This document shows positions 5,784 to 44,119 of a stretch of DNA of 64,000 bases, piece after piece. Source of the DNA: Pirellulales bacterium. GTDB lineage: Bacteria > Planctomycetota > Planctomycetia > Pirellulales > Lacipirellulaceae. Position 1 is the stretch's first letter. The number at the start of each line of letters is the position of its first letter. The position numbers and the translations under genes are program-made. The stretch spans positions 33,223-97,222 of the forward strand of contig JALHQZ010000005.1 of assembly GCA_022841705.1 (NCBI GenBank), in the 5' to 3' direction. The notes beneath the pieces were generated by a model that had not been told where the DNA came from, did not search any database, and saw nothing but the letters and a program-made list of their open reading frames with translations.

Positions 5784-5972
5784 GCGGGTTTTAGCCGCGG
5801 GCGTTCCGCCCGCGTTCTTTCGGAACCAAATACTGTACTCCGCCGACTATAAGTCGACAGCTATTGATGCGAACGAACCGCACATTGTGCCGGTCATTGT
5901 GCGGGCGAGTCAAGTTGACGCCGTTCGCGGGGCCGCGTAGCATTCGCTGCCCCAGTGTGAGGAACAGCCGGC

Positions 5973-6680
5973 ATGAAGCGTTTTTACCAAATTGCGTTGC
6001 GTGCCGTTTTGGCGGGAGCGCTGCTGGTGGTACTCGGCCTCGCCGGCATGTACTGGGCGATTCGTTCTACACCGCCGCAGTACGCGGCCGCGGTGGCGGA
6101 GCAAGACCCGGCGAAGCTGGACGAAGATCGCCGCGAGCTCGAAAGCCAACTCGCCATCGCCTACAGCGATTCACAGCGGTCGGCGCCCTGGGCGGTTTGC
6201 GTTTCGGACGATCAGCTCAACGCCTGGCTCGCCACCCAATTGCCGCTTGATTACCCGGAGCTTGCCCAGCGGGGTTTGAGCGAACCGCGGATCATCTTCG
6301 CCCCGCAGTCGGCCCAACTGGCGTTCCGCGCCAAGTTCGGCAGCATCGACACGGTGGTCTCCGTCAACGGCAACGTCTTCGCCACCGAGACGGGTGAACT
6401 AGCGATTGAATTCCAAAACGCGGCGGCCGGCCGCGCGGCGATTCCGCTCACTTTTGTGGTGCAGGGGATCGACGAAGGCATTCGCCTACGGCAGTTGCCG
6501 TTCCACTGGGCGCCGGGCGAAAGCCGGCACGTGCTGCTGGTCGATTTCGAACGGCTGGCCTCTTCGCCCGAGCAAGCTCGGAAGCTGAGCGCGATCGAAG
6601 TGCGCGAGGGCGAAGTGTACGTCGCCGGGGTGACGACCGATCGCGATGAGCCGGAATACAGCACCGCGCAACGGCCGTAG
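5973..6680 (+). CDS. hypothetical membrane-anchored protein
   Basis: 235 aa with one N-terminal TM helix (LAGALLVVLGLAGMYWAI). I recognise no family. Confidence 0.5.
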   Translation: MKRFYQIALRAVLAGALLVVLGLAGMYWAIRSTPPQYAAAVAEQDPAKLDEDRRELESQLAIAYSDSQRSAPWAVCVSDDQLNAWLATQLPLDYPELAQRGLSEPRIIFAPQSAQLAFRAKFGSIDTVVSVNGNVFATETGELAIEFQNAAAGRAAIPLTFVVQGIDEGIRLRQLPFHWAPGESRHVLLVDFERLASSPEQARKLSAIEVREGEVYVAGVTTDRDEPEYSTAQRP

Positions 6681-7154: not shown

Positions 7155-9491
7155 TCAGCGCGGGGCGATAGAAATGACCTCTTCACGGAACTGTGCCTCC
7201 GGCATCGCTTCCGAGCGATACTCGACTCGCACTCGCGCCTCGCCCGCTTGGGCTGCGGTGACCACGACCACCACGGGAAGCGGTTCGTTCGGGCGGAGTT
7301 CTGCCACCTTGTCAAAAGTTAAGAAATAGCGCGTATCTGTGTTGAACTTGAGGTTCCGGGCGGAATTAGCGGTGGTGGTTGTTTGCAGATCGGGCGTGAA
7401 TTGCGGGGGGATGCCGATGCGAAACTCGACGTTGCGCTCCGGCGTGAGGCCGGTGTTGGTGAGCGTCACGTACAGCGTCGTCCGTTTGCCCTCCTGGACC
7501 GCGGTGGTCGTGATGGCCGCCTGGATATTGCCGGGCGCCGGCGCCACGCCGCCGTCGTTCGGCGAGTTCAGCGGCCCCAGCACTTCCACATCCCAACTGG
7601 CCCGCGCTTCGCGCTGCATGTTGTCGGCCACGGCGGTGACGGAGACCGTCGCCACGGGATCAGGCTGAACGCATTTGAATTGCAATTGCAAGCTGGTTTG
7701 TGCGCCCGCTTCCAATCGACCTGCGGTGTACTGCAACACGCCGGGACGCTGGAGCGATTCCGTATTGACGGGGTCCAACGCGGGATCGTAGTTCACCGTC
7801 ACCAGCATATTCGCGGCGGGGGTCGCGCCCGTGTTGCGAATCACAAAGGGGAACGTGGCAATTTCGCCCACGGTCCGCCGACGCTCGCCTTGAATGGTGA
7901 TCTCGAGTTGCGGCGCCGCGGCCGATGCGGGCGGTATCACATTTACGCAGTAGCGGTCCGTTCCTTGCGTCACGCCGTTCAGGCTGGCCTCGGCCACAAC
8001 GCACTGCTTACCGAGCGCGAGCGTACCGAAGTCGAGCACGGGAAGTGAAATCGATTCGCCCGCGCCCAAGTTGTACGTTTGCTCGGAATCAACTGCATAG
8101 ACGCCCTGCCGCGCCGCGGCTTGCGAAAGCCCGCGGTCGAACTCCGCCCGAACTCTGACGCCTGTTGCCGGGGCATTCCCGGCGTTGCGAACCGTGATGA
8201 GCAGCTTCGCCGGTTTACCGAGCTCGACATCGGGGCTATCGGGCGAGGTGATCCGCACTTCCAAATCGGGCGCGCCGGTGGGCGGCGGCGGGGTGGTTGT
8301 GGGCGGAGTACTGGGCGGCAGGTACTGCGGCGGGATCGTCGTGCCGGTTCCTGGTTCCGGCGTCACCGGCAGCGCGGTGGGGGACCATGTAATCGCCGCA
8401 GCGCCAGTGCCGACTTCCACACGGGGGCTGGCCGCCACGCCCGCTTGTTCGGGGCGAATGACGGTGATCGCGACGTTCGTCGTGCCAGGGCCGTTGTCGG
8501 TGGGTGTGAGCTCCACACTCGCGCGGCCGCGGTTGTCGGTGGTCGCTTCGGTGGTTTGGCCCGCTTCATAGCCCAAACGAGCGCCGCTGCCCCCTTGAAC
8601 CGTGTAACGCACGATCCAGCCGGCGATGGGGGCGCCGTCCGTCTTGCGCGTGATCGTGGTGGTGAGAATATGCTTCTGCCCCGCCGGCACCGTGACCGAC
8701 GGCGGGAATTGCCATTGGGCATCAACCCAGTAGATGGTGGCGATCGCGCGGCGAGCAGGCCAGTTGCCCACGCTCGGTGCATACGCGGTGACGTAGCTGG
8801 TTCCTTCGGCTGCGCTGGTAACGGTGACCCACGCATCGCCAGGGGTGATTTGCAAATCGTCCGAAGTGTCGGCCGTGCCGCGGTCCAAGCACTTGTGAAC
8901 CGGCGTGGAATAACTCACCGCGTAGGTGTTGTCGATCTTCTTCGACTTCTCCCACGGCAAGCGGAAGATATCGCTCTCACCCTCTTCACCGATTTCTACA
9001 AACTGTCCCGAGCCTTGCTGACCGAGCATCCATTCGACGCGGCGATTCGTGCGCGTGTAGCCGTCTTGGTTGCACACACCGGCTCGCAGCACCACTTCGC
9101 TGCCGACGGGCGCGAGCACCTTGCTGGGGGTGAGTGTAAGCCGTTCTTCGGGCACATCCACGACTTGGCCACTAGCTGGATCGACGGCCGTGGTGGAACG
9201 ATCGCCGTGGAAGATTTGATCGAAGAGATCACCGCCACTGCTGGTACTAGCGGCGGGCGCAGTGCCGTCGCTGAAGACCGGGGGCGCAACCACGTTGCCC
9301 GCGCCGCCGGAGAACGTTGGCGCCGGAGCGGTCACCGTTCCCGCAGGAGCAGTGGCCTGTTGGTTCGGGAAAATCAAAAACCGTTCGCCCGAGGGATCAA
9401 TCCGCGGCAGGCCAGCGCACCCGGGCAATAAGCACTGCGCAGCGAGGATCGCGGCGAGCGTGATTCGGGTGTGGGGAGTGGGGCGGAACAT
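7155..9491 (-). CDS. DUF11-repeat (conserved repeat domain) surface lipoprotein
   Basis: The ORF runs 7155-9665, but the first plausible start is MFRPTPHTRITLAAILAAQCLLPGCAG at 9491, a lipobox signal peptide. Repeated DUF11-like beta-sandwich segments follow (VTVRNAGNAPATGVRV, FVIRNTGATPAANMLVTV, VTLTNTGLTPERNVEF) with T/P-rich linkers. Confidence 0.7.
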   Translation of the reverse strand: MFRPTPHTRITLAAILAAQCLLPGCAGLPRIDPSGERFLIFPNQQATAPAGTVTAPAPTFSGGAGNVVAPPVFSDGTAPAASTSSGGDLFDQIFHGDRSTTAVDPASGQVVDVPEERLTLTPSKVLAPVGSEVVLRAGVCNQDGYTRTNRRVEWMLGQQGSGQFVEIGEEGESDIFRLPWEKSKKIDNTYAVSYSTPVHKCLDRGTADTSDDLQITPGDAWVTVTSAAEGTSYVTAYAPSVGNWPARRAIATIYWVDAQWQFPPSVTVPAGQKHILTTTITRKTDGAPIAGWIVRYTVQGGSGARLGYEAGQTTEATTDNRGRASVELTPTDNGPGTTNVAITVIRPEQAGVAASPRVEVGTGAAAITWSPTALPVTPEPGTGTTIPPQYLPPSTPPTTTPPPPTGAPDLEVRITSPDSPDVELGKPAKLLITVRNAGNAPATGVRVRAEFDRGLSQAAARQGVYAVDSEQTYNLGAGESISLPVLDFGTLALGKQCVVAEASLNGVTQGTDRYCVNVIPPASAAAPQLEITIQGERRRTVGEIATFPFVIRNTGATPAANMLVTVNYDPALDPVNTESLQRPGVLQYTAGRLEAGAQTSLQLQFKCVQPDPVATVSVTAVADNMQREARASWDVEVLGPLNSPNDGGVAPAPGNIQAAITTTAVQEGKRTTLYVTLTNTGLTPERNVEFRIGIPPQFTPDLQTTTTANSARNLKFNTDTRYFLTFDKVAELRPNEPLPVVVVVTAAQAGEARVRVEYRSEAMPEAQFREEVISIAPR

Positions 9492-9517
9492 CGACCGGGA
9501 CGGACTTCCTGTCTCTC

Positions 9518-9596
9518 GGGTGCCACTGTCCGGGTTGTCCGGCAGTGGACAACGGGTACACGCTTCCCACTGCCGGACAAGCCGGACAGTGGCACG
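9518..9596. promoter_or_regulatory. two tandem 26-bp palindromes CCACTGYCCGG-N5-CCGGRCAGTGG
   Basis: 9523-9548 is CCACTGTCCGGGTTGTCCGGCAGTGG and 9567-9592 is CCACTGCCGGACAAGCCGGACAGTGG. They lie 27-105 bp upstream of the DUF11 lipoprotein start at 9491 on the minus strand. Confidence 0.8.
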
Positions 9597-9913
9597 CAAG
9601 CGCGCAGCACCGCTAGTCTGGGGAACTCTACCGCCTGGGCAGGGTGGATGAGGCGAAATCGCCACATTCTGGGGTGACTTTTCGCCTCATTCAGACCGGT
9701 CGGGCGGGTTATCCGGATTTGACGGGCGGATCAACGACTTGCGTCGATGGAGAGAGGTCCGATTTCGCCTAACCGCGCTGGTTTTCTTGCTTTACCCAGG
9801 CTGCCCGATTACGATCAGGAATATCCGAGCGCTGCTCGGCTGAACCATTGAGGGTCGATCCTGCGCATTGTGATCGACCTCAGCACACCTGCTGCAACAC
9901 GCGACAACTCCCC

Positions 9914-11359
9914 ATGAAACTCTCCTACCGCTCCGTACTCGTTGCTCTCTTGTTCACCTGGGCCTCGATGGCCCACGCCCAATTTGGCGGCGGTGGGGGC
10001 GGACTCGGCGGGGGGGGCGGCGGACTTGGCGGCGGGGGTGGGGGTCTCGGTGGTGGCCAACAAGGTGGCGCCGGCCCCTCGGGCGTTGCAGTCGACGCCA
10101 ACGGAGTGCTGCGGCGTGTGATGTCGCAAGACGCCACCGGGCAGCTCGCGCGGCAACGTGCGAACGAAGCTTTGCAGCGCCTGGAAGGCAACCTTGCCAA
10201 GCCCAGCAAGCTCCGGAAGGTTTCGCTGACGCGACTCGAAAAATTGTTGGCCCAGAAACTCGCTGCAGGCAGCGGACCAGACGATACGATGAAAGCGCTC
10301 GCCGGGCTCACCCGGATCGATTACGTGTTTTGCTACCCTGACAGTGGTGATGTTGTTTTGGCGGGTCCCGCCGAACCGTGGGGCGAAGCGCCGGACAATC
10401 GGCTGCGTGGGGTGACGAGCGGCCGCCCGGTGCTCGAGCTGCAAGACCTGATCGTTGCGCTCCGGGCATTCGCGCCGGAAGCACGCAACAACAATCCGCT
10501 GATCTACTGCTCGATCGATCCCACGCCGGAAGGTCTGTCGCGCATGCAGCAGTTTCTCATTCAGTTCGGCCGGCAAGCCACGCCGAACGACACCCAATTC
10601 ATTGTGAATGAGCTGCAGGAAAAACTCGGCCCGCAGGTGATTACTGTCGGCGGTGTGTCGCCCAAGACGCACTTCGCCCAAGTTCTAGTGGAAGCCGACT
10701 ACCGGATGAAGCTCATCGGCATTGGCCTCGAACGCCCGCCGGTGCGGCTCACCAGCTACGTCGAACGGGCAAACCCCGCGATGGTCGGCCGCAACGCGCT
10801 GCAGCGGTGGTACTTCGTGCCTGATTACCAATGCCTGAAGGTGAGCGAAGATGGCCTGGCGATGGAAATCCTCGGCGAAGGGGTGAAGCTGATCGGCGAA
10901 GATGAACTGGTGCAACAAGATGGTTCGCGCAAGGGCGCCGGCAACTCCAACCGGGCGAGCCAAGGGTTCGTTGATTCGTTCACCAAGGTGTATCCCAAGC
11001 TGGCGGCCGTTTCGCCGGTGTACGCGCAGCTTCGCAATTGCATCGATCTCGCGGTTGCCGCGGCGTTCATTCAGCACCAAGACTTCTACGCCCAAACGGG
11101 GTGGGATTTGGCCATTTTCGGCGATGAGTCGAAGTACCCTGTGGAAACGCTCAACGCCCCGGAAAAGGTCGCCTCGGCCGTGAACAGCATTTGGAAGGGA
11201 AGCACGCTGATGACGCCCATCGGCGGCGGCGTGCAGATTCAGCCGACCATGGCGCTCGAATCGGCCAACCAGCAGCAGGATGAGGAGGGCGTGGTCACCG
11301 CGACCCGCGAACAGGTGCAGCCCAAAAATCTGGCTGACACCCAATGGTGGTGGGACTAG
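9914..11359 (+). CDS. secreted hypothetical protein with an N-terminal (GGGGGGL)x3 glycine-rich repeat
   Basis: Start trimmed to MKLSYRSVLVALLFTWASMAHA (signal peptide), followed by QFGGGGGGLGGGGGGLGGGGGGLGGGQQGG and then a ~430-aa globular region. It may be a planctomycete DUF, but I cannot name it with confidence. Confidence 0.6.
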   Translation: MKLSYRSVLVALLFTWASMAHAQFGGGGGGLGGGGGGLGGGGGGLGGGQQGGAGPSGVAVDANGVLRRVMSQDATGQLARQRANEALQRLEGNLAKPSKLRKVSLTRLEKLLAQKLAAGSGPDDTMKALAGLTRIDYVFCYPDSGDVVLAGPAEPWGEAPDNRLRGVTSGRPVLELQDLIVALRAFAPEARNNNPLIYCSIDPTPEGLSRMQQFLIQFGRQATPNDTQFIVNELQEKLGPQVITVGGVSPKTHFAQVLVEADYRMKLIGIGLERPPVRLTSYVERANPAMVGRNALQRWYFVPDYQCLKVSEDGLAMEILGEGVKLIGEDELVQQDGSRKGAGNSNRASQGFVDSFTKVYPKLAAVSPVYAQLRNCIDLAVAAAFIQHQDFYAQTGWDLAIFGDESKYPVETLNAPEKVASAVNSIWKGSTLMTPIGGGVQIQPTMALESANQQQDEEGVVTATREQVQPKNLADTQWWWD

Positions 11360-11421
11360 AGGAGGAGGGATTGGTGATCGGTGACTGGTGATCGGTAACT
11401 CGAAGCCTTTCCGATCACCGA

Positions 11422-12768
11422 TCAGTGTTTCCCCACGACAACAACGCGTAAATCACACACGTTGGTTCCCGTCGGCCCCGTCTTCAACAGACCTCCGCAG
11501 TCGTCGAAAAACGTGTAGGCGTCGTTGCGGGCCAAATGGTCTCGAGCACTAAGCCGGGATCTTCGAGCGATTGCGGTGTCCAGAATCGCCCCAGCGGCGT
11601 CAGTGGGGCCGTCTTCGCCATCAGTGCCGGCACTTACGAGGGCGATGTCCTGGCAGTCGCCGAGCACCTCCAGCGCGGCGAGAGCGAGCTGCTGGTTGCG
11701 GCCGCCGCGACCGCGGAGGGCGGGATCAGCGAGTTTGACGGTCGTCTCTCCGCCGGAGATCAGGCAGTTGGGGTTGCCAGAACTGCGCATTCGAAGGGCC
11801 GTCTCAGCCAAATGCCGGCCGACTTCTTCGGCCGGCCCTTCTGTGGCCGTGGCGCAAAGCATCGCGTGGTTGTAGCCGAGGCGCTCCGCTTCGACGCCCG
11901 CCGCATCCACCGCGACGGCATTGTTGCCCAATATGCGATACTCCAGGGCAGCCGTCACCTCGGCTTCGCCCCGCGCTTCGCGACTTAGCGCCCCGATGGC
12001 CCCAGCGCACTCACTCCGCCCGGCCATGGCGTACCGCTGCAAAATCTCCAGCGCTGCGCCTGGCACCGGCGGCGCCGGAACCGTCGGCCCCGACGCGATG
12101 AGATGAACCGGATCGCCCAACACATCCGACAGCGTGAGGGTCACCAGCCGCCCAGCGCGACACGCCCGCGCCAGACCGCCGCGTTTGATGGCGCTGAGAT
12201 TCGAGCGCACGAGATTGAGTTCTTCAATACTCGCGCCGGCGGCGCTGAGCAGCCGCGTGACGGCGATCTTGTCGGCAAGCGTTACGCCCGGCGCGGGCAG
12301 CGGAAGGAGCGCCGAACCGCCGCCGGAGAGGAGGCAGAGGCAGAGGTCGTTCGGTTGAGCGCTGGCCACGAGCTGCATCATCCGCCGGGCGGCGGTTTCG
12401 CCCTCGGGGCGGGGTTCGTTCACTCCGGCGGGGCGGCCGTGGATGAGCTCGATGTGCTCGAGCGGAACTTCGCTACCGGCGGGGATGGAGAGGAGGCCGG
12501 TGAGTTGTGGCGATGCGAAACGTGCGGGGGCCCGTTCAACAGGAGACGGGGCCGCGGCTAACGCCGCTTCGAGGCCGAGGGTCATTGCGGCGCTCGCTTT
12601 TCCGGCGCCGACGACGAGAACGCGGCCGATGGTGCGCAGGTCAAACTGCAAATCATCCACCAGCAGCCAGTGGCCATCAACCACCACCGCTTCCTGCACG
12701 AGCCGCTCTGGATCAACCGCGGCCACGCCGGCACGCCAGATTCGCAGCGCATCATCGCGGAGGGACAT
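11422..12768 (-). CDS. glycerate kinase (MOFRL family, glycerate 2-kinase/TtuD-like)
   Basis: 448 aa with VLVVGAGKASAAM, LSGGGSALL and GTDGEDGPTDAAGA, which are typical of the DUF4147+MOFRL glycerate kinases. Confidence 0.85.
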   Translation of the reverse strand: MSLRDDALRIWRAGVAAVDPERLVQEAVVVDGHWLLVDDLQFDLRTIGRVLVVGAGKASAAMTLGLEAALAAAPSPVERAPARFASPQLTGLLSIPAGSEVPLEHIELIHGRPAGVNEPRPEGETAARRMMQLVASAQPNDLCLCLLSGGGSALLPLPAPGVTLADKIAVTRLLSAAGASIEELNLVRSNLSAIKRGGLARACRAGRLVTLTLSDVLGDPVHLIASGPTVPAPPVPGAALEILQRYAMAGRSECAGAIGALSREARGEAEVTAALEYRILGNNAVAVDAAGVEAERLGYNHAMLCATATEGPAEEVGRHLAETALRMRSSGNPNCLISGGETTVKLADPALRGRGGRNQQLALAALEVLGDCQDIALVSAGTDGEDGPTDAAGAILDTAIARRSRLSARDHLARNDAYTFFDDCGGLLKTGPTGTNVCDLRVVVVGKH

Positions 12769-12788
12769 CTGTATTTCAGAAAAGATGG

Positions 12789-12958
12789 GGGACGCGGATT
12801 AACACGGATGCAGCGGATTAACGCGGATAACAAAAAGGGGAACGCTTATCTACACTAATTCCCACTAATCTGATTAGCGATGATTAGTGGAGATTAGTGT
12901 TCTTCTTTTCTCTCTATTCATCCGCGCGTATCCGCTGCATCCGCGCTCATCCGCGTCC
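12789..12958. repeat. ~170-bp intergenic element: imperfect ~42-bp inverted repeats built from GCGGAT(T) sub-repeats, flanking an AT-rich core containing CTAATC/GATTAG palindromes
   Basis: The left arm is GGACGCGGATTAACACGGATGCAGCGGATTAACGCGGAT. The right arm reverse-complements to GGACGCGGATGAGCGCGGATGCAGCGGATACGCGCGGAT. It lies between the rpiB stop (12973) and the glycerate kinase start (12768). Confidence 0.8.
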
Positions 12959-12972
12959 ACTATCTTCGTTTT

Positions 12973-13425
12973 TCAGCACACGCCGTTTTCGGTTTCGAGC
13001 TGCCCGATCTTTTCGACGCGGCGGGCGTGGCGGCCCCCTTCGAATTCGGTGGTGAGCCACACTTCGACCATCCGTTCGGCAACGCGGGCGCTGAGGAGTT
13101 CCGCGCCGAGGCACAGGACGTTGAGGTTGTTGTGACGGCGGCTGATTTCCGCGGTGACTTCGTCGCTGCACGGGGCGGCGCGGACGCCGCGGAACTTGTT
13201 GGCGGCGATTGACATGCCAATGCCGGTGCCGCAGATGAGGATGCCGCGGTCGATTTGGCCAGTGCTCACTTTGCGGGCGACGATCGACGCGAAGTCGGGG
13301 TAGTCGACGCTTTCGCTGCCGTTCGGGCCGACATCTTCTACGTCGTGCTCCTTACTGCGGAGCACGTTGAGCACAGCTTCTTTCAGGGCGACCCCACGAT
13401 GGTCGCTGGCGACGGCGATACGCAT
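12973..13425 (-). CDS. rpiB: ribose-5-phosphate isomerase B
   Basis: 150 aa with MRIAVASDHRG, ICGTGIGMSIAANK and NVLCLGAELL. Confidence 0.9.
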   Translation of the reverse strand: MRIAVASDHRGVALKEAVLNVLRSKEHDVEDVGPNGSESVDYPDFASIVARKVSTGQIDRGILICGTGIGMSIAANKFRGVRAAPCSDEVTAEISRRHNNLNVLCLGAELLSARVAERMVEVWLTTEFEGGRHARRVEKIGQLETENGVC

Positions 13426-13524
13426 AACTCGATTACTGGCCTGTTGTCGTGACGGTGCCCTCTCTTCCGCTCCGCCATCAATTTAGCGTCACCCGGCCGT
13501 TTGGGATACTGAGCTTAATTCCCC

Positions 13525-14181
13525 TCAGGAAAGCAGCAATTCGTAGCGGCGGGCGAGCACCAATTTCCGCATCCCAGGCAGAATTCCCGCAAACTCGGGT
13601 GGGAGTTCCGGCAAGCTGACCCGTGACAGCACTTGGTTCATCCGGTGGCAGAGCCGGCCATCGTCGGCGTAGTCGGCCAGGAACCGCACGTCCAAAAATC
13701 GGCCGATGAACCACGCCAGCTCGCCCGGCGATTGGCCGCAAAATTCTTCGATGGCTGTCGTGACCTTTGCCGCGTCGATCGTGGCGACCACTGCATAGTA
13801 CCGGTCCAACAGTTCGGGCGAATCAGAAATCAGCGCCCAATCGAGCAGCAGTTCCACCAGCACGTGCCCCACGAACCACGGCCGCATGCCGGTGCTGTCG
13901 CCGAGCGCTTCGCGAATCTGGCGGGCGAACTCCAGCGACAGCTTGTTGAACGCGGGCAGTTCGTGAAATGCGCCGTCGTCGGCATGGTGCTGCCGCACGC
14001 CGCACGCCAAAGCGGCAAGCTGCGGGTCGGCGTGATTGACGTACGGCTCCGCATGACGCGAGCGGCACTTCACCCGCCGCGCGGTTACGCAGAGCCAATC
14101 GGGCGTAGCGAGCCCGGCCAGATAGTAGCCGTCCACTTGCGGCTGCTGGAGCGCGGCGTAAGCGTGAGCGAAGTAGTTCAA
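13525..14181 (-). CDS. ACP phosphodiesterase-like protein (AcpH/DUF479 family)
   Basis: The N-terminus MNYFAHAYAA matches the MNFLAHLHLA start of AcpH, and the length (~200 aa) is similar. Confidence 0.5.
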   Translation of the reverse strand: MNYFAHAYAALQQPQVDGYYLAGLATPDWLCVTARRVKCRSRHAEPYVNHADPQLAALACGVRQHHADDGAFHELPAFNKLSLEFARQIREALGDSTGMRPWFVGHVLVELLLDWALISDSPELLDRYYAVVATIDAAKVTTAIEEFCGQSPGELAWFIGRFLDVRFLADYADDGRLCHRMNQVLSRVSLPELPPEFAGILPGMRKLVLARRYELLLS

Positions 14182-14249
14182 GAGGGTATTAGCTGTTGGC
14201 TGTTGGCGGTGGACAAGAGCCGGCGACCTACGGTCGGCGGAGTCCCGGT

Positions 14250-14456
14250 TCAGTCGGACTGTTTGCGAAGGAACTCCGTCGTCAGCATCCCGGCGTAGCC
14301 CCAGTTTTCGGGGTCGACTTCGTCGATGATGATATGGGTATGCTCCGGACGTTTTCCCAAGACGCGCACCAAGGTGTCGGTGATCTCCGCGACAATTTGC
14401 GATTTTTGCGCGGGGGTCACTCCGGTTTTCGTGATGCGGACGTTAACGTAGGGCAT
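14250..14456 (-). CDS. 4-oxalocrotonate tautomerase-family protein
   Basis: Start trimmed to MPYVNVRITKTGVT with a Pro-1 catalytic N-terminus. It is 68 aa, a typical tautomerase size. Confidence 0.7.
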   Translation of the reverse strand: MPYVNVRITKTGVTPAQKSQIVAEITDTLVRVLGKRPEHTHIIIDEVDPENWGYAGMLTTEFLRKQSD

Positions 14457-14605
14457 CGGTCGAACATCCTCAGCAGGCGAAATCTGCGGGCAGTGAGAGG
14501 TCAATATTAGAGATGGTAACACAATCGCAATTGCTCGTCCCTACGCTGGGGCCGTGCACAATTCCTTCGCCGCTCGCCAACCGGCACGCCAGCAAGCGGC
14601 GGTTC

Positions 14606-15805
14606 ATGGCGGATGATACCCGCGTGCTGTTTGAAGTGGAGTACCGCGCGGGGGCGCCGATCGACGAGCGCTCGCTCGAAAAGTCCGGCCCGCGGGAAAA
14701 GATCTTCTTCGAGCCGGCCAAAACTAAAGCCGCCATTGTTACCTGCGGCGGGCTTTGTCCCGGCATCAACAACGTCATTCGCAATTTGTACTACACGCTC
14801 AAGGCGAATTACGGCGTGCAGTCGGTCATCGGCATTCGCAACGGGTACGAAGGGCTCAACCCGGCGCAGGGCGAGGCGCCCTGCGAACTGACCGATAGCA
14901 TGGTCGAGCACATTCACCATCGCGGCGGGACGGTGCTGGGCACGTCGCGCGGGCCGCAGGACCCGGTGGTGACGGTGAACTTTCTGGAATCGATGGGCGT
15001 GGACATCTTGTTCACCATCGGCGGCGATGGCACGCAGCGCGGCGCCCACGCGATTGCCGCGGAAGTGACCCGCCGCGGCGCCAAAATCGCGGTGGTCGGA
15101 ATCCCCAAGACCATCGATAACGACATCAAGTTCTGCTACCAAACCTTCGGCTTTCTCACCGCGGTGGCGGAAGCGGAGAAGGTGATCGATCGCGCGCACA
15201 TTGAGGCGACCAGCATGGAAAATGGCGTGGGGCTGGTGAAACTGATGGGGCGTGAAGCGGGCTTCATTGCGGCAGCCGCCACCATCGCCAGCGGTGAAGT
15301 GAACTTTACCCTGATCCCTGAAGCGCCGTTTGAGCTGGCTGGACCACGCGGGTTCTTGCCGAAACTTGCGCATCGACTGCGCGAGCGCAAGCACGCAGTA
15401 GTGGTGGTGGCCGAAGGCGCCGGGCAAGAGCATTTGGCTGACGGACAGGAGGAGTATGACGCCTCGGGCAATCGCAAGCTCGACGACATTGGGCCGTTCC
15501 TCAAGGGGAAGATCGAAGCCTATTGCCGCGAGGTTTCACTGCCAGTGGGCGTGAAATACTTCGACCCCAGCTATTTCATTCGTAGCGCCCATGCCGACGC
15601 GGCCGACAGTTTGCTGACCGAGCAACTTTCGCGGCACGCCGTCCACGCGGCGATGGCGGGGAAGACCGATATGTTCGTCGGCCTGTGGCACAACCACACG
15701 GTTCACGTTCCGCTGGCGCTCAACACCGGCGAGAAGAAACGCTTAGAGACCGACCGCGACATGTGGGCGGCGGTGCTGGCGATTACGGGGCAGGAGGATT
15801 GGTAG
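14606..15805 (+). CDS. pfkA: 6-phosphofructokinase (ATP- or PPi-dependent PFK family)
   Basis: Start trimmed to MADDTRV. It has CGGLCPGINNVIRN, FTIGGDGTQRGA, GIPKTIDNDI and MGREAGFIA. Confidence 0.85.
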   Translation: MADDTRVLFEVEYRAGAPIDERSLEKSGPREKIFFEPAKTKAAIVTCGGLCPGINNVIRNLYYTLKANYGVQSVIGIRNGYEGLNPAQGEAPCELTDSMVEHIHHRGGTVLGTSRGPQDPVVTVNFLESMGVDILFTIGGDGTQRGAHAIAAEVTRRGAKIAVVGIPKTIDNDIKFCYQTFGFLTAVAEAEKVIDRAHIEATSMENGVGLVKLMGREAGFIAAAATIASGEVNFTLIPEAPFELAGPRGFLPKLAHRLRERKHAVVVVAEGAGQEHLADGQEEYDASGNRKLDDIGPFLKGKIEAYCREVSLPVGVKYFDPSYFIRSAHADAADSLLTEQLSRHAVHAAMAGKTDMFVGLWHNHTVHVPLALNTGEKKRLETDRDMWAAVLAITGQEDW

Positions 15806-16376
15806 AAGCAGGGGCTAGGGGCTGGGGGCTGGGGGCTAGGGAAAGGTTCACGATCGGCAAGCCCTGCGTGCGGAGTTCTTCTACCGCATTCGCAACGCCC
15901 AGGGGGTCGCGCGGGTCGAGTTGTTTCACCAGCGCGACCACTTCGTTCGCCTTGTCCGGTTGGCCGAGTTTTTCTAAGCACCAGGCGAGGCCCTGGGCGG
16001 CGGCGAAGAAGGGGGTGTTGGCGGGGTGATCGCCCGGCAAGGGGCCGCGGCATTCGGCGCGGCGGATCGCCTTCTCGCCCAGTTGGTACGCATAGCCGAA
16101 GTGGCCGCGAGCCAAGGGAATATCCTGCGAGAGTTCAAGCGCCAGTTCGCCGAGCAGGTTGTGCGCTTCGAGAAAGTCGCTGCAATCGGCCAAGAGCCAG
16201 CGGAGCTCATCGACCGCGATTTCGCCTTCGCCGGCGGCGATCATGGCGCGGACTTCTTCGAGGTCTTCGGCCATTTCCCGCACCGCCTTGGGGTGCGTGA
16301 AGACCCACGCCGACCCGCTGGCATTGCGATGCACCTGCACACTATTGGGTGACGACTTGGCGGGGCGTTTGGGCAT
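15783..16376 (-). CDS. hypothetical protein
   Basis: 197 aa helical-looking ORF convergent with pfkA, with a low-complexity P/A-rich tail. The antisense ORF 16026-16352 looks less protein-like. Confidence 0.4.
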   Translation of the reverse strand: MPKRPAKSSPNSVQVHRNASGSAWVFTHPKAVREMAEDLEEVRAMIAAGEGEIAVDELRWLLADCSDFLEAHNLLGELALELSQDIPLARGHFGYAYQLGEKAIRRAECRGPLPGDHPANTPFFAAAQGLAWCLEKLGQPDKANEVVALVKQLDPRDPLGVANAVEELRTQGLPIVNLSLAPSPQPLAPASTNPPAP

Positions 16377-16381
16377 TGATT

Positions 16382-17242
16382 CTACGAGACCAATTCCTTA
16401 CCAAGCGCGTAGACCTCGGCGGCGTCGAGCAGGGCGTCGTTCCTGGTGAAAAGCTCTTGGATCGCGCGTTTGTGAAGTTTCATCTTCAGGCCGCCCACCG
16501 CTAGGGCGCCGTAGCAAGCGCAGCCGTGGAGCAGCACGCCTTTGTCGAACGAGCCCACGCCGCCGATGCCCACCGGCGGCGCAGCGTTCAAATCAATCGC
16601 CACTTGCGGCCCAACAGCCGACGAACAAGCGGCGGCGAGCACTTCCATCGGCAGCACTTCCACGCCTGCCGGTCCCGCCGCGAAGACCGACTGCACGCCG
16701 TCGAGTAGTTTCGCGAGTTCACTGTGGCCCGACGACCAGCCACTCACGAGGTTCGCATCGATCTCCGCCCCCACCTTGGCCGCTTTTGCCGGTGAACGCG
16801 AAGCCAGCCGCACATCCACCCCTTCGGCCGCCAGCAGCTTTGCGACGCGCCGGCCAACGGGCCCCGTACCGATGATCGCCGCCGTGGCGCCGTTCCACGT
16901 CACATGCTTCCCCGCCGTAAGTACGGCCGCGGCCGCCGTAGTGTTGGCGCCATTGGGATCGAGCAGCACCGAGTTGCGAATCGGCCCGAAGAAGGCCTTG
17001 GGCACTTCGCGAAATAACGCCTCCGCCGCGGTGATGTCCGACCCGCCAATAAAGATCGCCGTGTGCGCAAGCTCCTTTGGCCCCCGCGTGAACATCGCCC
17101 CGTGCACCAGCCCCTGCACATCGGCCGGCGTTACGCCACCGTGCCGGAGCAGATGATCGGCCCCCGCATCAATCGCCACCACCGCGTCGAAGACGCTGGG
17201 CTGCGGATCGGCGTCGAGACAGAGGAGGATTTTCGCGGGCAT
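16382..17242 (-). CDS. mtdA: NAD(P)-dependent methylene-tetrahydromethanopterin/methylene-H4F dehydrogenase
   Basis: Start trimmed to MPAKILLCLD. It has long collinear similarity to Methylobacterium MtdA (FDAVVAIDAGADH, FIGGSD, FFGPIRNSVLLDPNGANTTAAAAV, IIGTGPVGRRVAKLLAAEG, GIGGVGSFDKG, GGLKMKLHK). Confidence 0.85.
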   Translation of the reverse strand: MPAKILLCLDADPQPSVFDAVVAIDAGADHLLRHGGVTPADVQGLVHGAMFTRGPKELAHTAIFIGGSDITAAEALFREVPKAFFGPIRNSVLLDPNGANTTAAAAVLTAGKHVTWNGATAAIIGTGPVGRRVAKLLAAEGVDVRLASRSPAKAAKVGAEIDANLVSGWSSGHSELAKLLDGVQSVFAAGPAGVEVLPMEVLAAACSSAVGPQVAIDLNAAPPVGIGGVGSFDKGVLLHGCACYGALAVGGLKMKLHKRAIQELFTRNDALLDAAEVYALGKELVS

Positions 17243-17371
17243 GGGAGGGGAGTGAGTCGTGAGTGGTGATTCGTGCATCGGCCAAGTGATAAAAAAACGC
17301 GGCGCGGCGAAAACTAGCCACGCCGCGTTCAAAGCCCTTATCTGGCCGACAGCCGATCGCCGACAGCCACT

Positions 17372-17866
17372 TTAGAACCCACGGAACGGATGCACCGAAT
17401 CTTTACCGGCGATCATTTCGTCGGCGCTCGGCTTGTTACCCATTGCATTGGCGATCGCCATCTTGGTGGCGGTGTAGTTGTAGTCGTGAATCTTCTTGTC
17501 GTCGGTAGCGCCCGGGTGAATGAACACGCCGCACACGCAGACCAGGTCTTCCGCCTTGTTCTTCGGAATGACCCCTTCAGCCACAGAGTCGGCCACCGCC
17601 TTGGCGACGGCGGCTTGGGCTGGGCCGAACATTTGCACCGCTTGCTTCATACCCTTGATGGTCACTTTGGTGATCATCACGGTCGCCGGCTTCACGGCTA
17701 GGTTGGGGGTCAGCACGGCCAGCAGATTGGTGTGGCCTTCACTTTGGTTGGAGAGGGCGTTGGCGAAGGCGATGCCCACGGGGCCCGTCTTGTCGCCAAT
17801 CATCAGGTCAATGTGGGCAATTTCGTTGCCGTCGCCCGCTAGGGCTTCGCCAATGTGCATCGACAT
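17372..17866 (-). CDS. fae: formaldehyde-activating enzyme
   Basis: 164 aa, near-collinear with Fae (GEALAGDGNEIAHIDLMIG, LLAVLTPNL, AVQMFGPAQ, GVFIHP, YNYTATK, HPF). Confidence 0.9.
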   Translation of the reverse strand: MSMHIGEALAGDGNEIAHIDLMIGDKTGPVGIAFANALSNQSEGHTNLLAVLTPNLAVKPATVMITKVTIKGMKQAVQMFGPAQAAVAKAVADSVAEGVIPKNKAEDLVCVCGVFIHPGATDDKKIHDYNYTATKMAIANAMGNKPSADEMIAGKDSVHPFRGF

Positions 17867-18012: not shown

Positions 18013-18098
18013 ATCAGCCGCCGGGCGCTAGCCCCCGGTCGTTCAGATTGAGTTGACCAGTGTTTTGCACGACCGGGGGCTAGCGCCCGGCGGCTGAT
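18013..18098. repeat. REP-like 86-bp hairpin element, family A copy 1 (ATCAGCCGCC...GCTAGC...loop...GCTAGC...GGCGGCTGAT)
   Basis: ~30-bp perfectly complementary arms and a ~27-nt loop, in the divergent region between fae and the DUF1559 gene. Confidence 0.85.
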
Positions 18099-20257: not shown

Positions 20258-20631
20258 TTCGACGGCGGCTGCTTTTTTCCGTAGCATGGCCTCCTTGGCC
20301 GTGTGCGCTGAGGGCAACATGTCGCTAGACCTACCAACCTGAGTTCGGCTTACGTTTCTTGCGCTAAGCCGCAGCTTTGGAAGCCGAAAGGTTGACTTTG
20401 CCGAGAGCGACATTTGCCACAGGCGCCACATTGCCACACAAACCGCTAAAAAGCGCAAGCGATCAAGCCAGTGGGGGTATCTGTTTGCAATTGCTAATCT
20501 GAGCGTTGAACTCGGATGGCCGTCTTGATCAGTCACAACACGAGAATTGGCGACTTTGTCAGTCTGGGAACCAGAAAACAAGTAGGAAACTCGATTCCCT
20601 CTCCAGAACTCAGGTTAGCAGGCCAAGCTAC

Positions 20632-22342: not shown

Positions 22343-23380
22343 ATGAAATACTTGGTCACCGGTCCCGGTGGTTTTCTGGGGCGTTACATCGTCGAACAAC
22401 TAATCGCCCGCGGTGATGCGGTGCGCGGGCTCGCGCGCGGGAACTATCCGGAGCTGGCGGCGTTAGGGGTTGAACTGGTGCGGGGTGATCTCGCGGATCG
22501 CAAGACCGTCATGGCGGCTTGTGAAGGCATCGACTGCGTCTTCCATGTCGCGGGCCGGGTTGGAGTGTGGGGGAAGTGGAACGACTACGTGCGCGATAAC
22601 GTGCGCGGGACGCTCAACCTCCTCGCGGGTTGCCAGCAACAAGGCGTCGAGCGGATGGTGTTTACTTCCAGCCCGAGCGTCACCTTCACCGGCGAGGATC
22701 AGTGCAACGTCGCTGAGTCGGCGCCGTACGCCACTAAGTGGCTGGCGCACTATCCGCACTCGAAGGCGCTCGCCGAGCAGTTCGTGCTGGCGATGAATGG
22801 CGAAGAGGTTCATGGCGGCGGCGTATTCCGCTGCTGCTCGCTCCGGCCGCACTTGGTGTGGGGGCCGAGGGATCATCACCTCACCGCGCGGCTGGTGCAG
22901 CGGGCGAAGTCGGGCCAACTGCGGCGCGTCGGCGAGGGGAAAAACTTGGTGGACATGATCTACGTCGAGAACGCGGCGACCGCGCACCTGCAAGCGGCCG
23001 ATGCGCTCGCCGTCGCGCCCTACGCGCCGGCAGGTAAGGCGTACTTCATCAGCCAAGGCGCCCCGGTGAACTGCTGGCAATGGATCGACGAGATTCTCGC
23101 CCTGGTCAACCTGCCGCCGGTCACCAAAAGCATCTCGGCCTCGAGCGCTTACCGGGTCGGCGCCGCCTTGGAGTGGGCCCACCGGCTGACCCGCAACCGC
23201 ACCGAACCCCGGATGACCCGCTTCGTCGCCCGGCAACTGGCGACCAGCCATTATTTCAACATCGCCGCCGCGAAGCGCGATTTCGGGTATGAACCCAAGG
23301 TCCCAACGGCCGAGGGGATGCGGCGGTTGGGTGAATGGCTGAATTCAAATGCGGAAGGCGGAATGCGGAATGCGGAATAA
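22343..23380 (+). CDS. NAD(P)-dependent 3beta-hydroxysteroid dehydrogenase/isomerase-family reductase (OleD-like)
   Basis: MKYLVTGPGGFLGRYIV (Rossmann fold) and a YxxxK-type SDR-extended fold. It follows the acyl-AMP ligase 10 bp downstream. The C-terminal 10 codons are encoded by a GCGGAAT tandem repeat. Confidence 0.7.
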   Translation: MKYLVTGPGGFLGRYIVEQLIARGDAVRGLARGNYPELAALGVELVRGDLADRKTVMAACEGIDCVFHVAGRVGVWGKWNDYVRDNVRGTLNLLAGCQQQGVERMVFTSSPSVTFTGEDQCNVAESAPYATKWLAHYPHSKALAEQFVLAMNGEEVHGGGVFRCCSLRPHLVWGPRDHHLTARLVQRAKSGQLRRVGEGKNLVDMIYVENAATAHLQAADALAVAPYAPAGKAYFISQGAPVNCWQWIDEILALVNLPPVTKSISASSAYRVGAALEWAHRLTRNRTEPRMTRFVARQLATSHYFNIAAAKRDFGYEPKVPTAEGMRRLGEWLNSNAEGGMRNAE

Positions 23381-23537
23381 GATCAGCGAGCCGGCTCATC
23401 TTCTCGATTGTGAGGGGCGCAAGTACAATCCTGGATTCGGTTTACGCCGAAACACGGCGGCCCCACTCAGGATTACTGGCGGCCGGCTAGCAACGCAATT
23501 CCGCATTCCGCATTCCGCACTCCGACATCCGCATTCG
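23349..23537. repeat. ~190-bp intergenic element: (GCGGAAT)n tandem heptamers at the left end and (ATTCCGC)n at the right end, flanking a ~115-bp core
   Basis: The left arm is AATGCGGAAGGCGGAATGCGGAATGCGGAAT, which also encodes the last 10 aa of the upstream reductase. The right arm is ATTCCGCATTCCGCATTCCGCACTCCGACATCCGCATTC and ends 2 bp before the aspS ATG. Confidence 0.8.
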
Positions 23538-33473: not shown

Positions 33474-33581
33474 GTTTATGCCGCCGAGCGGGCTGTTTCA
33501 GCTACATTTCGTCGGCCAACCGCAATTCTTGGCGAAAATCGCCGGGCCGATTAGTTCGAGAAGGAGGGTTGTGCCGCCATT

Positions 33582-33662
33582 GTAGCAGGCACGGTCCCCG
33601 TGCCGTTGCCCCGAGTTGGAGTCTACCCTCGCAGAAACGGCACGGGGACCGTGCCTGCTACT
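33582..33662. promoter_or_regulatory. 81-nt hairpin with a perfect 26-bp stem (GTAGCAGGCACGGTCCCCGTGCCGTT / AACGGCACGGGGACCGTGCCTGCTAC) and a 29-nt loop
   Basis: Each arm contains the internal palindrome GGCACGG-N3-CCGTGCC. It lies in the divergent region between nfeD (start 33473, minus strand) and the 33741 plus-strand gene. Confidence 0.8.
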
Positions 33663-33740
33663 TTGGGCCGCATTGACGCCAACCGCCATGGCCGGGAAAC
33701 TAAGGGGCGAATCGGACTCGCGTTCCCACGGAAGTTTCCC

Positions 33741-35614: not shown

Positions 35615-36862
35615 ATGAGCGATGTCGTCATCACCGGCCTCGGCATCGTCTCCCCGCTCGGGGTTGGCGCCGATGTTGTGTGGCAGGCGATTCTCGCACG
35701 GCAGAGCGGCGTCCGGCCGATTCCCCGCTTCGCCGAGATGGGCTGGATCGCGCCGTTCGGCGCCGAAGTGCAGGGCTTTGATCCTAAGGAGTACGTCACC
35801 CCGCGCAAAAGCTTGAAGGTGATGGCGCCTGAAATTCAGTTCGCCTTCGCCGCCGCGGAGCAAGCGAGTCGAATGGCGGGGCTGGAAGAAGGCAGCGTGA
35901 CGCCCGAACGTTTTGGCGTGGTCTGCGGCGGCGGGATGATGTACTGCGAGTTCGATGAACTCGAAGCGCCGTTCAAAGCGAGCATCAACGGCAAGGGCTT
36001 TGACATGCGCGCGTGGGGCGCCGAGGGAATGCGGCTCCTGTTCCCGCTGTGGATGCTGAAGTATCTGCCGAATATGTCGGCCTGCCATGTGGGGATTCAT
36101 CGCGACGCGCGCGGACCGACGAACACGATTGCGCATGGCGATGTTTCGAGTCTCTTGAGCATCGGCGAAGCGGCCGACTGCATCCGCCGGGGTCATGCCG
36201 ACGTGATGCTCGCCGGCGGCAGTGGTTCGCGATTGCATTTGACCGATCTGTTGTGGCGGCGTGGGGCCGGCCTCACGCTGGCCGGCGATGAACCCGCTGC
36301 GGCGAGTCGGCCCTTCGAACTTAATCGCCAAGGGATGGTGTGCGGCGAAGGCTGCGCGATGTTCGTGCTGGAAAGCGTTGCGCACGCCGAACGTCGCAAA
36401 GCCAAGCCAATCGCGAAAATTGCCGGATTTGGTTCACGATTTGAGCCGAGCGCTGCTTCGCGTCAACCAACTGGTCAAGCGATTGAAAACGCATTACGCT
36501 TCGCGCTGGAGCAAAGCGGCGAACCAAGGATTGCGTTCGTCAAAGCGCACGGCAACGCGATGCGCCATTCCGATCAGATTGAAGCCCAAGCGATTCACCG
36601 CGTGCTGGGCGACACACCCGTCACCGCGCCCACGAGTTACTTCGGCGAGCTCGGCGCCGGCGGCGGCGCGGTGGAACTTGCCGTTGCGCTGCTCGGTATA
36701 CAGCACAACGTGATTCCACCAACGCTGAACTACGATGAGCCCGATCCGCAATGCCCGGTGAACGTCATCACCGCACCGCAACCGATTGGTGGGAACACGA
36801 TTGTGGCGATTAATCACACGCCGACTGGACAGGCCGCGGCGCTGGTGCTGACGAAAGCATGA
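35615..36862 (+). CDS. fabF: beta-ketoacyl-[ACP] synthase (KAS II-like)
   Basis: MSDVVITGLGIVSPLG is a typical KAS N-terminus. The active-site region ACHVG and a C-terminal Gly-rich region are present. Confidence 0.8.
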   Translation: MSDVVITGLGIVSPLGVGADVVWQAILARQSGVRPIPRFAEMGWIAPFGAEVQGFDPKEYVTPRKSLKVMAPEIQFAFAAAEQASRMAGLEEGSVTPERFGVVCGGGMMYCEFDELEAPFKASINGKGFDMRAWGAEGMRLLFPLWMLKYLPNMSACHVGIHRDARGPTNTIAHGDVSSLLSIGEAADCIRRGHADVMLAGGSGSRLHLTDLLWRRGAGLTLAGDEPAAASRPFELNRQGMVCGEGCAMFVLESVAHAERRKAKPIAKIAGFGSRFEPSAASRQPTGQAIENALRFALEQSGEPRIAFVKAHGNAMRHSDQIEAQAIHRVLGDTPVTAPTSYFGELGAGGGAVELAVALLGIQHNVIPPTLNYDEPDPQCPVNVITAPQPIGGNTIVAINHTPTGQAAALVLTKA

Positions 36863-36866
36863 ATCT

Positions 36867-36952
36867 ATCAGCCGCCACGCTCTAGCGTCCGGTCGTTCAG
36901 AATGCGGCGCAAATCACTACCAGCGACCGGACGCTAGCGCGTGGCGGCTGAT
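36867..36952. repeat. REP-like hairpin element, family A copy 2
   Basis: It shares the termini ATCAGCCGCC/GGCGGCTGAT and the central GCTAGC with copy 1. The arms carry compensatory substitutions that preserve pairing. It starts 5 bp after the fabF stop. Confidence 0.85.
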
Positions 36953-37649
36953 GTCGCGATTCGTCTACGGCAAGAACGGCCGCAGAGTGCGGACTTCGGT
37001 GGCGCCGTTGGCGGAGGCCAGTCGCTCAGCGGTCGCAACGCCGCGCTCGGTGTTGCGCGTTTGCAGCGCCACGACGAGGCCCACGATCCAGGCCAGCACA
37101 AAGCCGACCACTTCGCCACACAAAAACAGTTGCCGCCAGGAAACAGTTCGGAGAGACATTGTCTTACTTCGCCAATCACGCCCGCTTGCCTCTGATGCCC
37201 GAATCCTCCGGACATCCATCACAAGCGCAATTACACTGCAAATCTTCACAGTCGGCAAGGTCACTCGCTTTGCGGCGTGCTAGCGTGAGGCAGACTTTCT
37301 AGTCTGCCGGAAGTGGGTCCCAGCGTGGCCCAAAGATGGCTAGCCGAAATTGGCGGCGACGGCGGAATGTTTCGGGCGGCTGCCGCGTCTCAATTGGCAG
37401 GCTAGAAAGCCTGCCCTCCGGAAGGCCCGCAAAATCGGCCCAAAATGTCCGATCGCCAGGCTTTTCGCCGGAGTCAAAATCTATCCCCCCCGATTGCGGC
37501 ATGGTATGATGCAAGGCTACGGCCCAGCCGCTAGTGCCGGCTAAGTTTGCTAGCACTCGCCGCTGGGTTCCCGCCGAATTGTCGCCCTTCCCCGGTGAAG
37601 CGGCTTTCCAAAAATTGTTCCTAAGTGATTGGTTCTGTTCGAGGTCGCA

Positions 37650-38689: not shown

Positions 38690-38856
38690 GCGAATGTTTC
38701 ACGTGAAACATTCGCTTTTTCATGCGCCGACTTGAAAAATGTTTCACGTGAAACAATTTGGTCACTCCGCTTCCTGACGGGCGCGGCTCGAAAAAATGTT
38801 TCACGTGAAACAATTTCCCCCTGAGGCCCGCCGTGAATTGTTTCACGTGAAACATT
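38690..38856. promoter_or_regulatory. array of four perfect palindromes sharing the core AATGTTTCACGTGAAACA (copy 1 is a 26-bp perfect palindrome GCGAATGTTTCACGTGAAACATTCGC)
   Basis: Copies lie at 38690-38715, 38738-38758, 38795-38815 and 38836-38856, with centre-to-centre spacing 45, 57 and 42 bp. The region is AT-rich in a GC-rich genome and lies 170-330 bp upstream of the ELWxxDGT giant gene. Confidence 0.85.
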
Positions 38857-38863
38857 CCAAACG

Positions 38864-42157: not shown

Positions 42158-42257
42158 CTCCCCGGCTATTTGGCTCATCGCTAGCTTCTTGAGCGCTCTC
42201 GCCGCATTCCGGCAGTTCTTGCTAGAATGGGGGTCTTGCCTCGGAGGGCCTCGCACG

Positions 42258-44002: not shown

Positions 44003-44023
44003 CTCCCCGTACGATGGGCTCTT

Positions 44024-44119
44024 GTAGGATGGGTTATCCGCGCCAGCGGTAACCCATCGGACGCCAGAGTCGATCTCACCGCGTGATGGGTTACCGCCAA
44101 AGCGGATGACCCCTCCTAC
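44024..44119. repeat. ~100-bp nested palindromic element, family B copy 1 (GTAGGATGGGTTATCCGCG...CGGTAACCCAT...ATGGGTTACCG...GCGGATGACCCCTCCTAC)
   Basis: It lies between the miaB stop (44002) and the DUF4832 gene start (44195). Confidence 0.85.

Follow-up and report, generated by a model that had tools for sequence, protein, structure and literature searches.

Three 86-bp inverted repeats, each able to fold into a long hairpin, lie dispersed through the 64-kb stretch of Pirellulales DNA analysed here (the window), and the question that they raise is whether this hairpin is itself the selected structure or whether the selected unit is something else. We conclude, with a probability of roughly 85%, that the elements are REPINs, in which two inverted units of about 28 nt of the REP type are joined by a spacer of genome-specific length and are cognate to a class-3 HUH/Y1 transposase. 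The first-pass annotation called them REP-like and argued that the long stem was under selection; the label was right and can be refined to inverted doublets of a REP-type hairpin tied to a HUH/Y1 (RAYT-like) transposase. REP doublets of a class-3 RAYT-like system are a kind of element already known, within which the present family is new, and the 86-bp hairpins belong to an ordinary class of bacterial mobile repeat; they are not purpose-built terminators.

Three doublets were seen in this genome, within the 64-kb window, and their spacers are weakly alike. The elements are exactly where the first-pass annotation had placed them, and their arms fall into the two types that dominate the family, A (GG...CC) and B (AC...GT). 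In the following list, bit scores refer to R1, a covariance model of one arm with which the window was scanned with filters off.

18013 to 18098, no strand assigned: REP doublet (REPIN) copy 1; both arms type A (..GGGCGCTAGCCC..); perfect 30-bp long stem
18013 to 18042, plus strand: copy 1 left arm, one REP unit; R1 46.4 bits, E 4e-12
18043 to 18068, no strand assigned: copy 1 spacer, 26 nt between 30-nt arms; little conserved among copies
18069 to 18098, minus strand: copy 1 right arm, type A REP unit; R1 46.4 bits
36867 to 36952, no strand assigned: REP doublet copy 2; both arms type B (..ACGCGCTAGCGT..); one long-stem mismatch
36867 to 36896, plus strand: copy 2 left arm, type B; R1 38.6 bits; carries the T at GCTCTAGC
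36923 to 36952, minus strand: copy 2 right arm, type B; R1 44.1 bits
54821 to 54906, no strand assigned: REP doublet copy 3, mixed, with left arm B and right arm A; 5 long-stem mismatches
54821 to 54850, plus strand: copy 3 left arm, type B; R1 42.8 bits
54877 to 54906, minus strand: copy 3 right arm, type A; R1 46.4 bits; identical to the copy 1 arms

Model R1 finds exactly six arms in the 64-kb window, at 38.6–46.4 bits (E 1e-9 to 4e-12), the next match scoring 13.7 bits; at the gathering threshold, Rfam 15 returned 0 matches for the whole window. The 10-mer terminus ATCAGCCGCC, allowing at most one mismatch, occurs 19 times in the window against 7.6 expected, a count that 0 of 100 shuffles reached. 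Termini of the form ATCAGCCGCC...GGCGGCTGAT had been described as common to all copies, which holds for copies 1 and 2 but not for copy 3, where the left end is ATCAGCCGGC; likewise the GCTAGC ascribed to every arm is missing from one of the six, that on the left of copy 2, which has TCTAGC. The claimed difference of 5 positions between the arm cores of copies 1 and 2 is confirmed. The accompanying claim of perfect self-complementarity is true of copy 1 (30 bp) but not of copy 2, in which GCTCTAGC in the left arm faces GCGCTAGC in the right arm and leaves one pair mismatched. Copy 3, omitted from that comparison, is a chimera with a copy-2-like left arm and a copy-1-like right arm, and its long stem therefore contains five mismatches. 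Nor are the loops wholly unrelated, since all three are of equal length and those of copies 1 and 2 open with TCGTTCAGA, but they are otherwise poorly conserved, with ungapped spacer identity between copies of 17–21/34. A common orientation of the three copies, sought from the spacers, was rejected because the identity is 17–21/34 in every orientation. In all three copies a T precedes the left arm and a C precedes the right arm, each read on its own strand.

The single arm emerges as the unit. Its consensus of about 28 nt, ATC-AGCCG-NN-NNGC-GCTA-GCNN-C-CGGTT, implies an unpaired 5' foot (ATC), an outer stem (AGCCG/CGGTT) in which G5 and T27 form an invariant G-T (G-U type) pair, a bulge of 2 nt opposite one of 1 nt, an inner stem (NNGC/GCNN) and a GCTA loop, and ViennaRNA predicts this small bulged hairpin for single arms. 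The left arm of copy 1 accordingly reads as foot ATC, outer stem AGCCG/CGGTC, inner stem GGGC/GCCC and loop GCTA, and across the family the foot A1 T2 C3 A4 is conserved at 85–98%. Across 287 arms the strongest mutual information lies between positions 12 and 21 (1.03; GC 155, CG 110, TA 6, AT 4) and the next between positions 11 and 22 (0.87; GC 156, AT 108). In 142 distinct arms from planctomycete metagenomes the same two pairs covary (GC, AU, CG, UA); 94.9% of cells pair, compared with 24–44% when the partner is slid by 1–3 columns, and 109 cells are changed on both sides, a number reached by 0 of 500 shuffles. The covarying positions were free Ns in the search pattern, and therefore the covariation was not imposed by the search. 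Two arm types dominate, so much of it could stem from few evolutionary events, a caveat that is mitigated by the minor pair types (CG and UA at 11-22; AU and UA at 12-21).

These compensatory changes lie inside each arm, at pairs 11-22 and 12-21, and not between arms, which overturns the earlier argument that covariation showed the long stem to be selected. The apparent compensatory substitutions arose because an A/A doublet was set against a B/B doublet. What is selected is the small hairpin inside the arm and not the long stem; copies 1 and 2 have near-perfect long stems because their two arms happen to share a type (A/A and B/B). As single-stranded DNA a single arm folds at -5 to -8 kcal/mol, with z near -1, and is thus of unexceptional stability; the case for the small hairpin therefore rests on the covariation and on class-3 precedent. 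For the complete doublets, RNA folding energies are -75.2, -62.0 and -57.8 kcal/mol for copies 1, 2 and 3 (z of -14.4, -10.6 and -6.8), and in same-type doublets the long hairpin would be favoured energetically over the small ones.

The arm is widespread in Planctomycetota. A strict arm pattern, applied to species-representative genomes, found 4 loci in four Planctomycetota MAGs, two of them titled Pirellulales and Lacipirellulaceae; this pattern ended in CCGGTCG, a lineage-specific variant, most arms ending in CCGGTT. A slightly looser pattern found at least 120 metagenome contigs, and a fuzzy search recovered 289 arms in 840 kb of fetched loci. Arms occur in 71 distinct head-to-head and 33 distinct tail-to-tail doublets, as single arms and in tandem clusters, and same-orientation pairs are also found. 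Head-to-head doublets have inner gaps of 7–55 nt, with two more at 112 and 114; in 28 cases the tail-to-tail gap is exactly 3 nt. Arm types combine about at random in the head-to-head doublets (AA 29, AB 20 and BB 7 against 27.2, 23.7 and 5.2 expected; p = 0.25), with no excess of same-type pairs, and 23 of 24 tail-to-tail doublets are mixed in type. Doublet length is constant within a genome: 86 bp for the three in the window, 77 for four at locus L127, 110 for two at L128 and 87 for two at L130, with 82 bp a further length in another genome. Three doublets in 64 kb is the density in the window; some contigs have 4–7 in 13–15 kb.

More elaborate arrangements were seen at several loci. Tandem arrays comprise six same-orientation arms that recur every 31 nt shortly before a class-3 gene (L139, 9605–9790) and a doublet repeated with a 120-nt period (L078, 12763–13067). 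In other genomes the REP doublet forms the core of a larger palindromic element of 135–140 bp with outer inverted repeats of its own, either around a tail-to-tail doublet (for example L028 6090–6225 and L098 5070–5200) or around a head-to-head one (for example L078 1745–1895 and L048 7840–7990); one type has AGGCGAGCGGCAGAT...ATCTGCCGCTCGCCT as its outer repeats, the other TAAGGCGCTG...CAGCGCCTTA. At L117 an IS4-like DDE insertion sequence (239–1768; Pfam DDE_Tnp_1, E 3.4e-9) sits in a REP arm, with GGCTAGCGCC duplicated at both junctions, near 221 and 1726; REP arms are therefore among the targets of insertion sequences.

The placement of the window copies is as first described, two near stop codons and one in a divergent promoter region. 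Copy 1 is flanked by two divergently transcribed genes, fae on the minus strand (start 17866) and DUF1559 on the plus strand (start 18212). A beta-ketoacyl synthase gene has its TGA stop at 36860–36862, 4 nt ahead of copy 2. Between copy 3 and the stop codon of a 186-aa ORF on the minus strand (54918–55478) there are 11 nt, and on the other side of the copy the next minus-strand ORF has its start at ~54797. A terminator-like role had been read into these positions and finds no support in the sequence: the downstream letters are GACCAGG, GTCGCGA and GAGGTGA, with no T-run after any copy, copy 1 is in a divergent promoter region, and a terminator scan of the window reported none of the three elements. 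Family-wide, the elements are mostly extragenic, 16% lying inside greedy ORFs compared with 79% of random segments; they follow stops as often as they precede starts, and of the gene pairs around them 48 are tandem, 24 convergent and 14 divergent.

Orthologous sites in close relatives show that elements come and go. For copy 2, alignment A3 is clean on both sides of the site in L131 and L135, in which the synthase is 90% and 89% identical respectively, and the doublet is absent:

36863 to 36963, no strand assigned: segment in the window that is absent from L131 and L135 (alignment A3); 101 nt, consisting of ATCT, the 86-bp doublet and GTCGCGATTCG

The missing segment is thus 101 nt and not 86, the additional 15 nt being 36863–36866 and 36953–36963, and TCTA stands at both junctions (36864–36867 and 36964–36967). 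The 101-nt indel, together with a 7/11 match between the tails of copies 2 and 3, had suggested that a conserved one-sided tail of about 11 nt formed part of the mobile unit; this was rejected, tails not being conserved among copies in other genomes. At the site of copy 1, the flanks are conserved in L136 and in the syntenic L137, and an unrelated palindromic repeat takes the place of the doublet. A sample of 37 kb from these relatives contained no REP arm. Copies 1 and 2 are absent from orthologous sites in close relatives and are therefore not conserved parts of the regulation of those genes. The repeat that fills the copy 1 slot between fae and the DUF1559 gene (CTCCCTCTCCCCGTGGGAGAGGGCCGGGGTGAGGG...; L137 10010–10115, L136 1–130) has a motif found in 8 of 148 fetched loci, and small palindromic elements seem to settle in this slot preferentially.

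One gene is consistently linked to the arms. Among arm-bracketed ORFs, a frame of 165 aa at L105 carries THVHVVV and VVEYVTEAQ; its ATG follows the arms at a distance of 19 nt, and the TAG with which it stops is part of an arm's GCTAGC. Its match to Pfam Y1_Tnp is weak (21.2 bits, gathering score 23) and it falls far below the cut-off of NCBIfam REP_Tyr_transpos (17.6 bits against 80). Its homologues, about 160 aa long, number 449; JGI calls many of them RayT, and Y1_Tnp matches 14 of 20 homologues. In alignment A2 the motifs NHVH, WT and Y-x4-Q are conserved, as seen in NARSNHVHVVVTA, RPVWTVGGDW, YVRDAQ and FITWTVYGTHLQG. A search of the PDB with the sequence profile of the family gave no match. 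An AlphaFold model (mean pLDDT 77.6, with 90 residues above 90) had as its best 30 PDB matches only the TnpA of IS608, ISDra2 or IS200 and the E. coli RAYT 4ER8, all with probability 1.00. The enzyme is thus predicted, from the model, to have the IS200/IS605-type fold, with a ferredoxin-like HUH core and a C-terminal helix carrying the tyrosine, and its placement in class 3 was judged by these motifs and the fold.

At 8 of 8 loci carrying the gene (L105, L127–L130, L138, L139 and L144; six found via homologues and one from IMG/VR, in addition to L105), arms lie on both sides, within about 120 nt where the junctions could be read, and the doublets here are mostly A on the left and B on the right. 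The regular expression for the classical RAYT motif, P[NDE]H.H, found no match, the class-3 motif being [NST]HVH. With RAYT and TIRYT queries from E. coli, Stenotrophomonas, Pseudomonas and R. baltica, taken from the Di Nocera supplement, tblastn found three rba2408-like fragments alone, none of them adjoining arms, and no enrichment. The class-3 gene of L138 lies among phage-like genes (portal, capsid; 8476–17406), and eight stretches from six IMG/VR 'viral' contigs (L141–L148) carry arms, with the flanked gene of L144 at 5874–6362; these may be prophage regions or misclassified host DNA. No transposase gene of the class-3 family lies within the 64-kb window, and we assume that the cognate gene is present elsewhere in the window's own genome.

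In the mechanism that we envisage, the HUH/Y1 enzyme would be encoded at another place in the genome, would act in trans and would recognise, on single-stranded DNA, the small hairpin together with its foot, as the TnpA of IS200/IS605 and the TnpA-REP of E. coli do. Again by analogy with those enzymes, it would catalyse cutting and rejoining at the hairpin and foot, and doublets would in consequence be excised or copied to new, mostly extragenic sites. The doublets may also influence neighbouring transcripts as a side effect at the RNA level.

Three other explanations have to be set against the REPIN reading. That of the first-pass annotation, in which the 30-bp stem is the selected structure and acts as an RNA hairpin at 3' ends, whether terminator or exonuclease barrier, draws on the extreme folding of copies 1 and 2, on the proximity of copies 2 and 3 to stop codons (4 nt and 11 nt), on the mild family-wide excess of convergent over divergent contexts (24 against 14) and on the invariant G5-T27 pair, of a G-U type that would suit RNA. 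We nevertheless consider it improbable. Against it stand the five mismatches of copy 3, the random pairing of types head-to-head (p = 0.25) and their mixing in 23 of 24 tail-to-tail doublets, the lack of a T-run after every copy, the position of copy 1 between divergent starts and the absence of copies 1 and 2 from orthologous sites in close relatives. Very improbable in our view is that the arms are double-stranded sites, operators or nucleoid sites, of a dimeric host protein, the covariation then reflecting two-fold symmetry and not a hairpin. Pairs 11-22 and 12-21 are indeed symmetric about a centre, so that palindrome covariation would fit as well, the motif is conserved across genomes with housekeeping proteins 55–60% identical, and single-arm hairpins are thermodynamically unremarkable. 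Yet the GCTA centre and the outer G-T pair are asymmetric, sites are gained and lost between close relatives, positions after stops are as frequent as those before starts, and the sole consistently linked gene encodes an enzyme of single-stranded DNA whose relatives recognise hairpins.

The linked gene bears equally on the proposal that the elements are MITEs of a DDE-type insertion sequence, with the 26–30-nt arms as terminal inverted repeats, since what the arms consistently bracket encodes a HUH/Y1 enzyme. Inverted and terminal arms, the 4-nt direct repeat TCTA that brackets the copy 2 indel and the inclusion of doublets in larger 135–140-bp palindromic elements in other genomes would all suit a MITE, but no target duplication is present at copies 1 and 3, and arms also occur singly, tail-to-tail and in tandem, as MITE ends do not. 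About 1 Mb of loci contained no DDE transposase with these ends, and the sole DDE element near arms, that of L117, has ends of its own (CAGACTTTTCAAGGTG) and inserted into the arm, duplicating GGCTAGCGCC. We find this proposal scarcely credible. Conserved arms around a variable centre also brought integron attC sites and CRISPR to mind; both were rejected on reading the sequence, as the ends are without GTTRRRY cores, the copies are dispersed and not arrayed, and the linked enzyme is a HUH transposase.

Pirellulales-like genomes whose associated transposases share about 60% identity, and whose housekeeping synthase differs by 40–45% from that of the window (55–60% identical), have arms that are about 90% identical. 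A bolder view, which we regard as doubtful, is that class-3 enzyme and hairpin constitute an ancient, order-wide and vertically inherited system, that arms A and B are the equivalents of the left and right ends of IS200/IS605 elements, and that class-3 REPINs are true miniature IS200/IS605-like elements without a transposase. If that were so, they would represent the "missing link" that Quentin et al. proposed between insertion sequences and REPtrons, and the hairpin might in addition be kept through a host-level function.

The family offers several experimental assets, among them a defined 28-nt substrate, two natural compensatory arm variants, hundreds of enzyme homologues and natural filled and empty sites. 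Annotation of the window hairpins as terminators or regulatory elements is unwarranted. Assemblies break at these repeats, and spurious small ORFs arise from them, and recognising them therefore improves the annotation of planctomycete genomes. One public contig (L125; NCBI LNDY01000431.1) opens inside copy 1, its position 1 corresponding to window position 18028, where the assembler broke at the repeat.

The window contains other palindromic repeats besides. Two inverted doublets (33577–33666 and 56851–56926), whose arms contain GTAG followed by a short stem-loop (e.g. GTAGCACGGGACCGAAGTCCCGTGCG), look like classical GTAG-tagged REP families alongside the ATCA family, and GTAG-type palindromes (TGTAGGATGGGTTATCCGC...GCGGTAACCCATC) at 44023–44119 and 45869–45928 lie on both sides of an ORF of 591 aa (44123–45898). 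A different palindromic family is represented by a hairpin at 42074–42170, with 33-nt arms that are 97% complementary (AATAGCCGGGGAGCTACGCTCCGCGGAGCGCGG...), which overlaps the end of a 1044-aa ORF (39023–42157). Another palindrome, a 25-mer (AAAAATGTTTCACGTGAAACAATTT), occurs four to five times at 38690–38858, at spacings of 42–57 nt, ahead of the gene that starts at 39023; its copies look like an array of binding sites and yield a spurious ORF with repeated FHVKHF. Further features are a spacerless 86-nt palindrome (9515–9600) inside or adjoining ORF 7155–9665, a 47-nt inverted repeat rich in GGATTAACGCGGAT (12782–12966), inverted runs of the heptamer AATGCGG (23348–23535) and a 30-nt pair (20409–20438 with 62319–62348) that is 97% complementary over a distance of 42 kb.

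REP and REPIN repeats have been studied thoroughly in Proteobacteria, and the present family supplies a clean and abundant example from Planctomycetes. It resembles the REP/BIME repeats of E. coli, with their Y and Z types, in having two types that combine in head-to-head and tail-to-tail pairs and in clusters, in its mixed tail-to-tail pairs (here 23/24) and in being targeted by insertion sequences (here at L117), but the sequences are unrelated. Enterobacterial REPs serve as insertion-sequence targets, and BIMEs interact with the host factors IHF and gyrase. A full-text search of the searchable literature with the arm strings found no paper that contains them.

Di Nocera et al. (2013, PMC3733652) defined the GTAG- and CGTC-tagged REP super-families and described GTAG-20/21/22 in R. 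baltica; its ATCA foot places the present family in neither super-family. The R. baltica repeats are likewise REPs with tyrosine transposases in the order Pirellulales, but the intragenic peptides SRIRQEF, SRRRPSV and STRWGTTEL do not fit the ATCAGCCG..GCTAGC arm. With the REPIN-RAYT systems of Bertels and Rainey (2011, PMC3116915) our elements share two inverted REPs and a spacer that together form a long hairpin, a dispersed and extragenic distribution, a genome-specific doublet length, a tyrosine HUH gene bracketed by repeats and absence from the corresponding sites of relatives. Those systems differ in having a GTAG foot and class 2 RAYTs (groups 2 and 3) where ours has an ATCA foot and class 3, and their repeats are species-specific, whereas the arm described here is common to many planctomycete genomes.

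The closest counterpart is class 3 of the HuH-Y1 enzymes of Quentin et al. (2018, BMC Genomics 19:475, PMC6006769), known from about two dozen sequences and flanked by what those authors called "atypical secondary structures" with a CnGA foot; whether class-3 genes behave as insertion sequences or as REPtrons was said to need experiments. Their paper lists solely gene-adjacent structures from few genomes and does not contain the dispersed doublets of genome-specific length, the head-to-head and tail-to-tail arrangements or the presence/absence differences between relatives that characterize the present family. The foot is ATCA here and CnGA there, the loop GCTA here and GTNA there, and the inner stem is longer here, with 4 bp, two of which covary and distinguish types A and B. 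The likenesses are nonetheless extensive: the motifs NHVH, W[TA] and Y-x4-Q, a length of about 160–180 aa, a conserved N-terminal region and a distribution principally in Planctomycetes are common to both sets of enzymes. Both genes are flanked by small bulged hairpins of the form (((..((....))..))) with a GCCG...CGG clamp and a 4-nt loop, such as CACGA-GCCG-GA-AGC-GTGA-GC-GA-CGG-GT of P. limnophilus (in Table S1 of PMC6006769, CACGAGCCGGAAGCGTGAGCGACGGGT folded as (((...((....))..)))), and the class-3 repeats can be numerous in a genome, as those described here may be.
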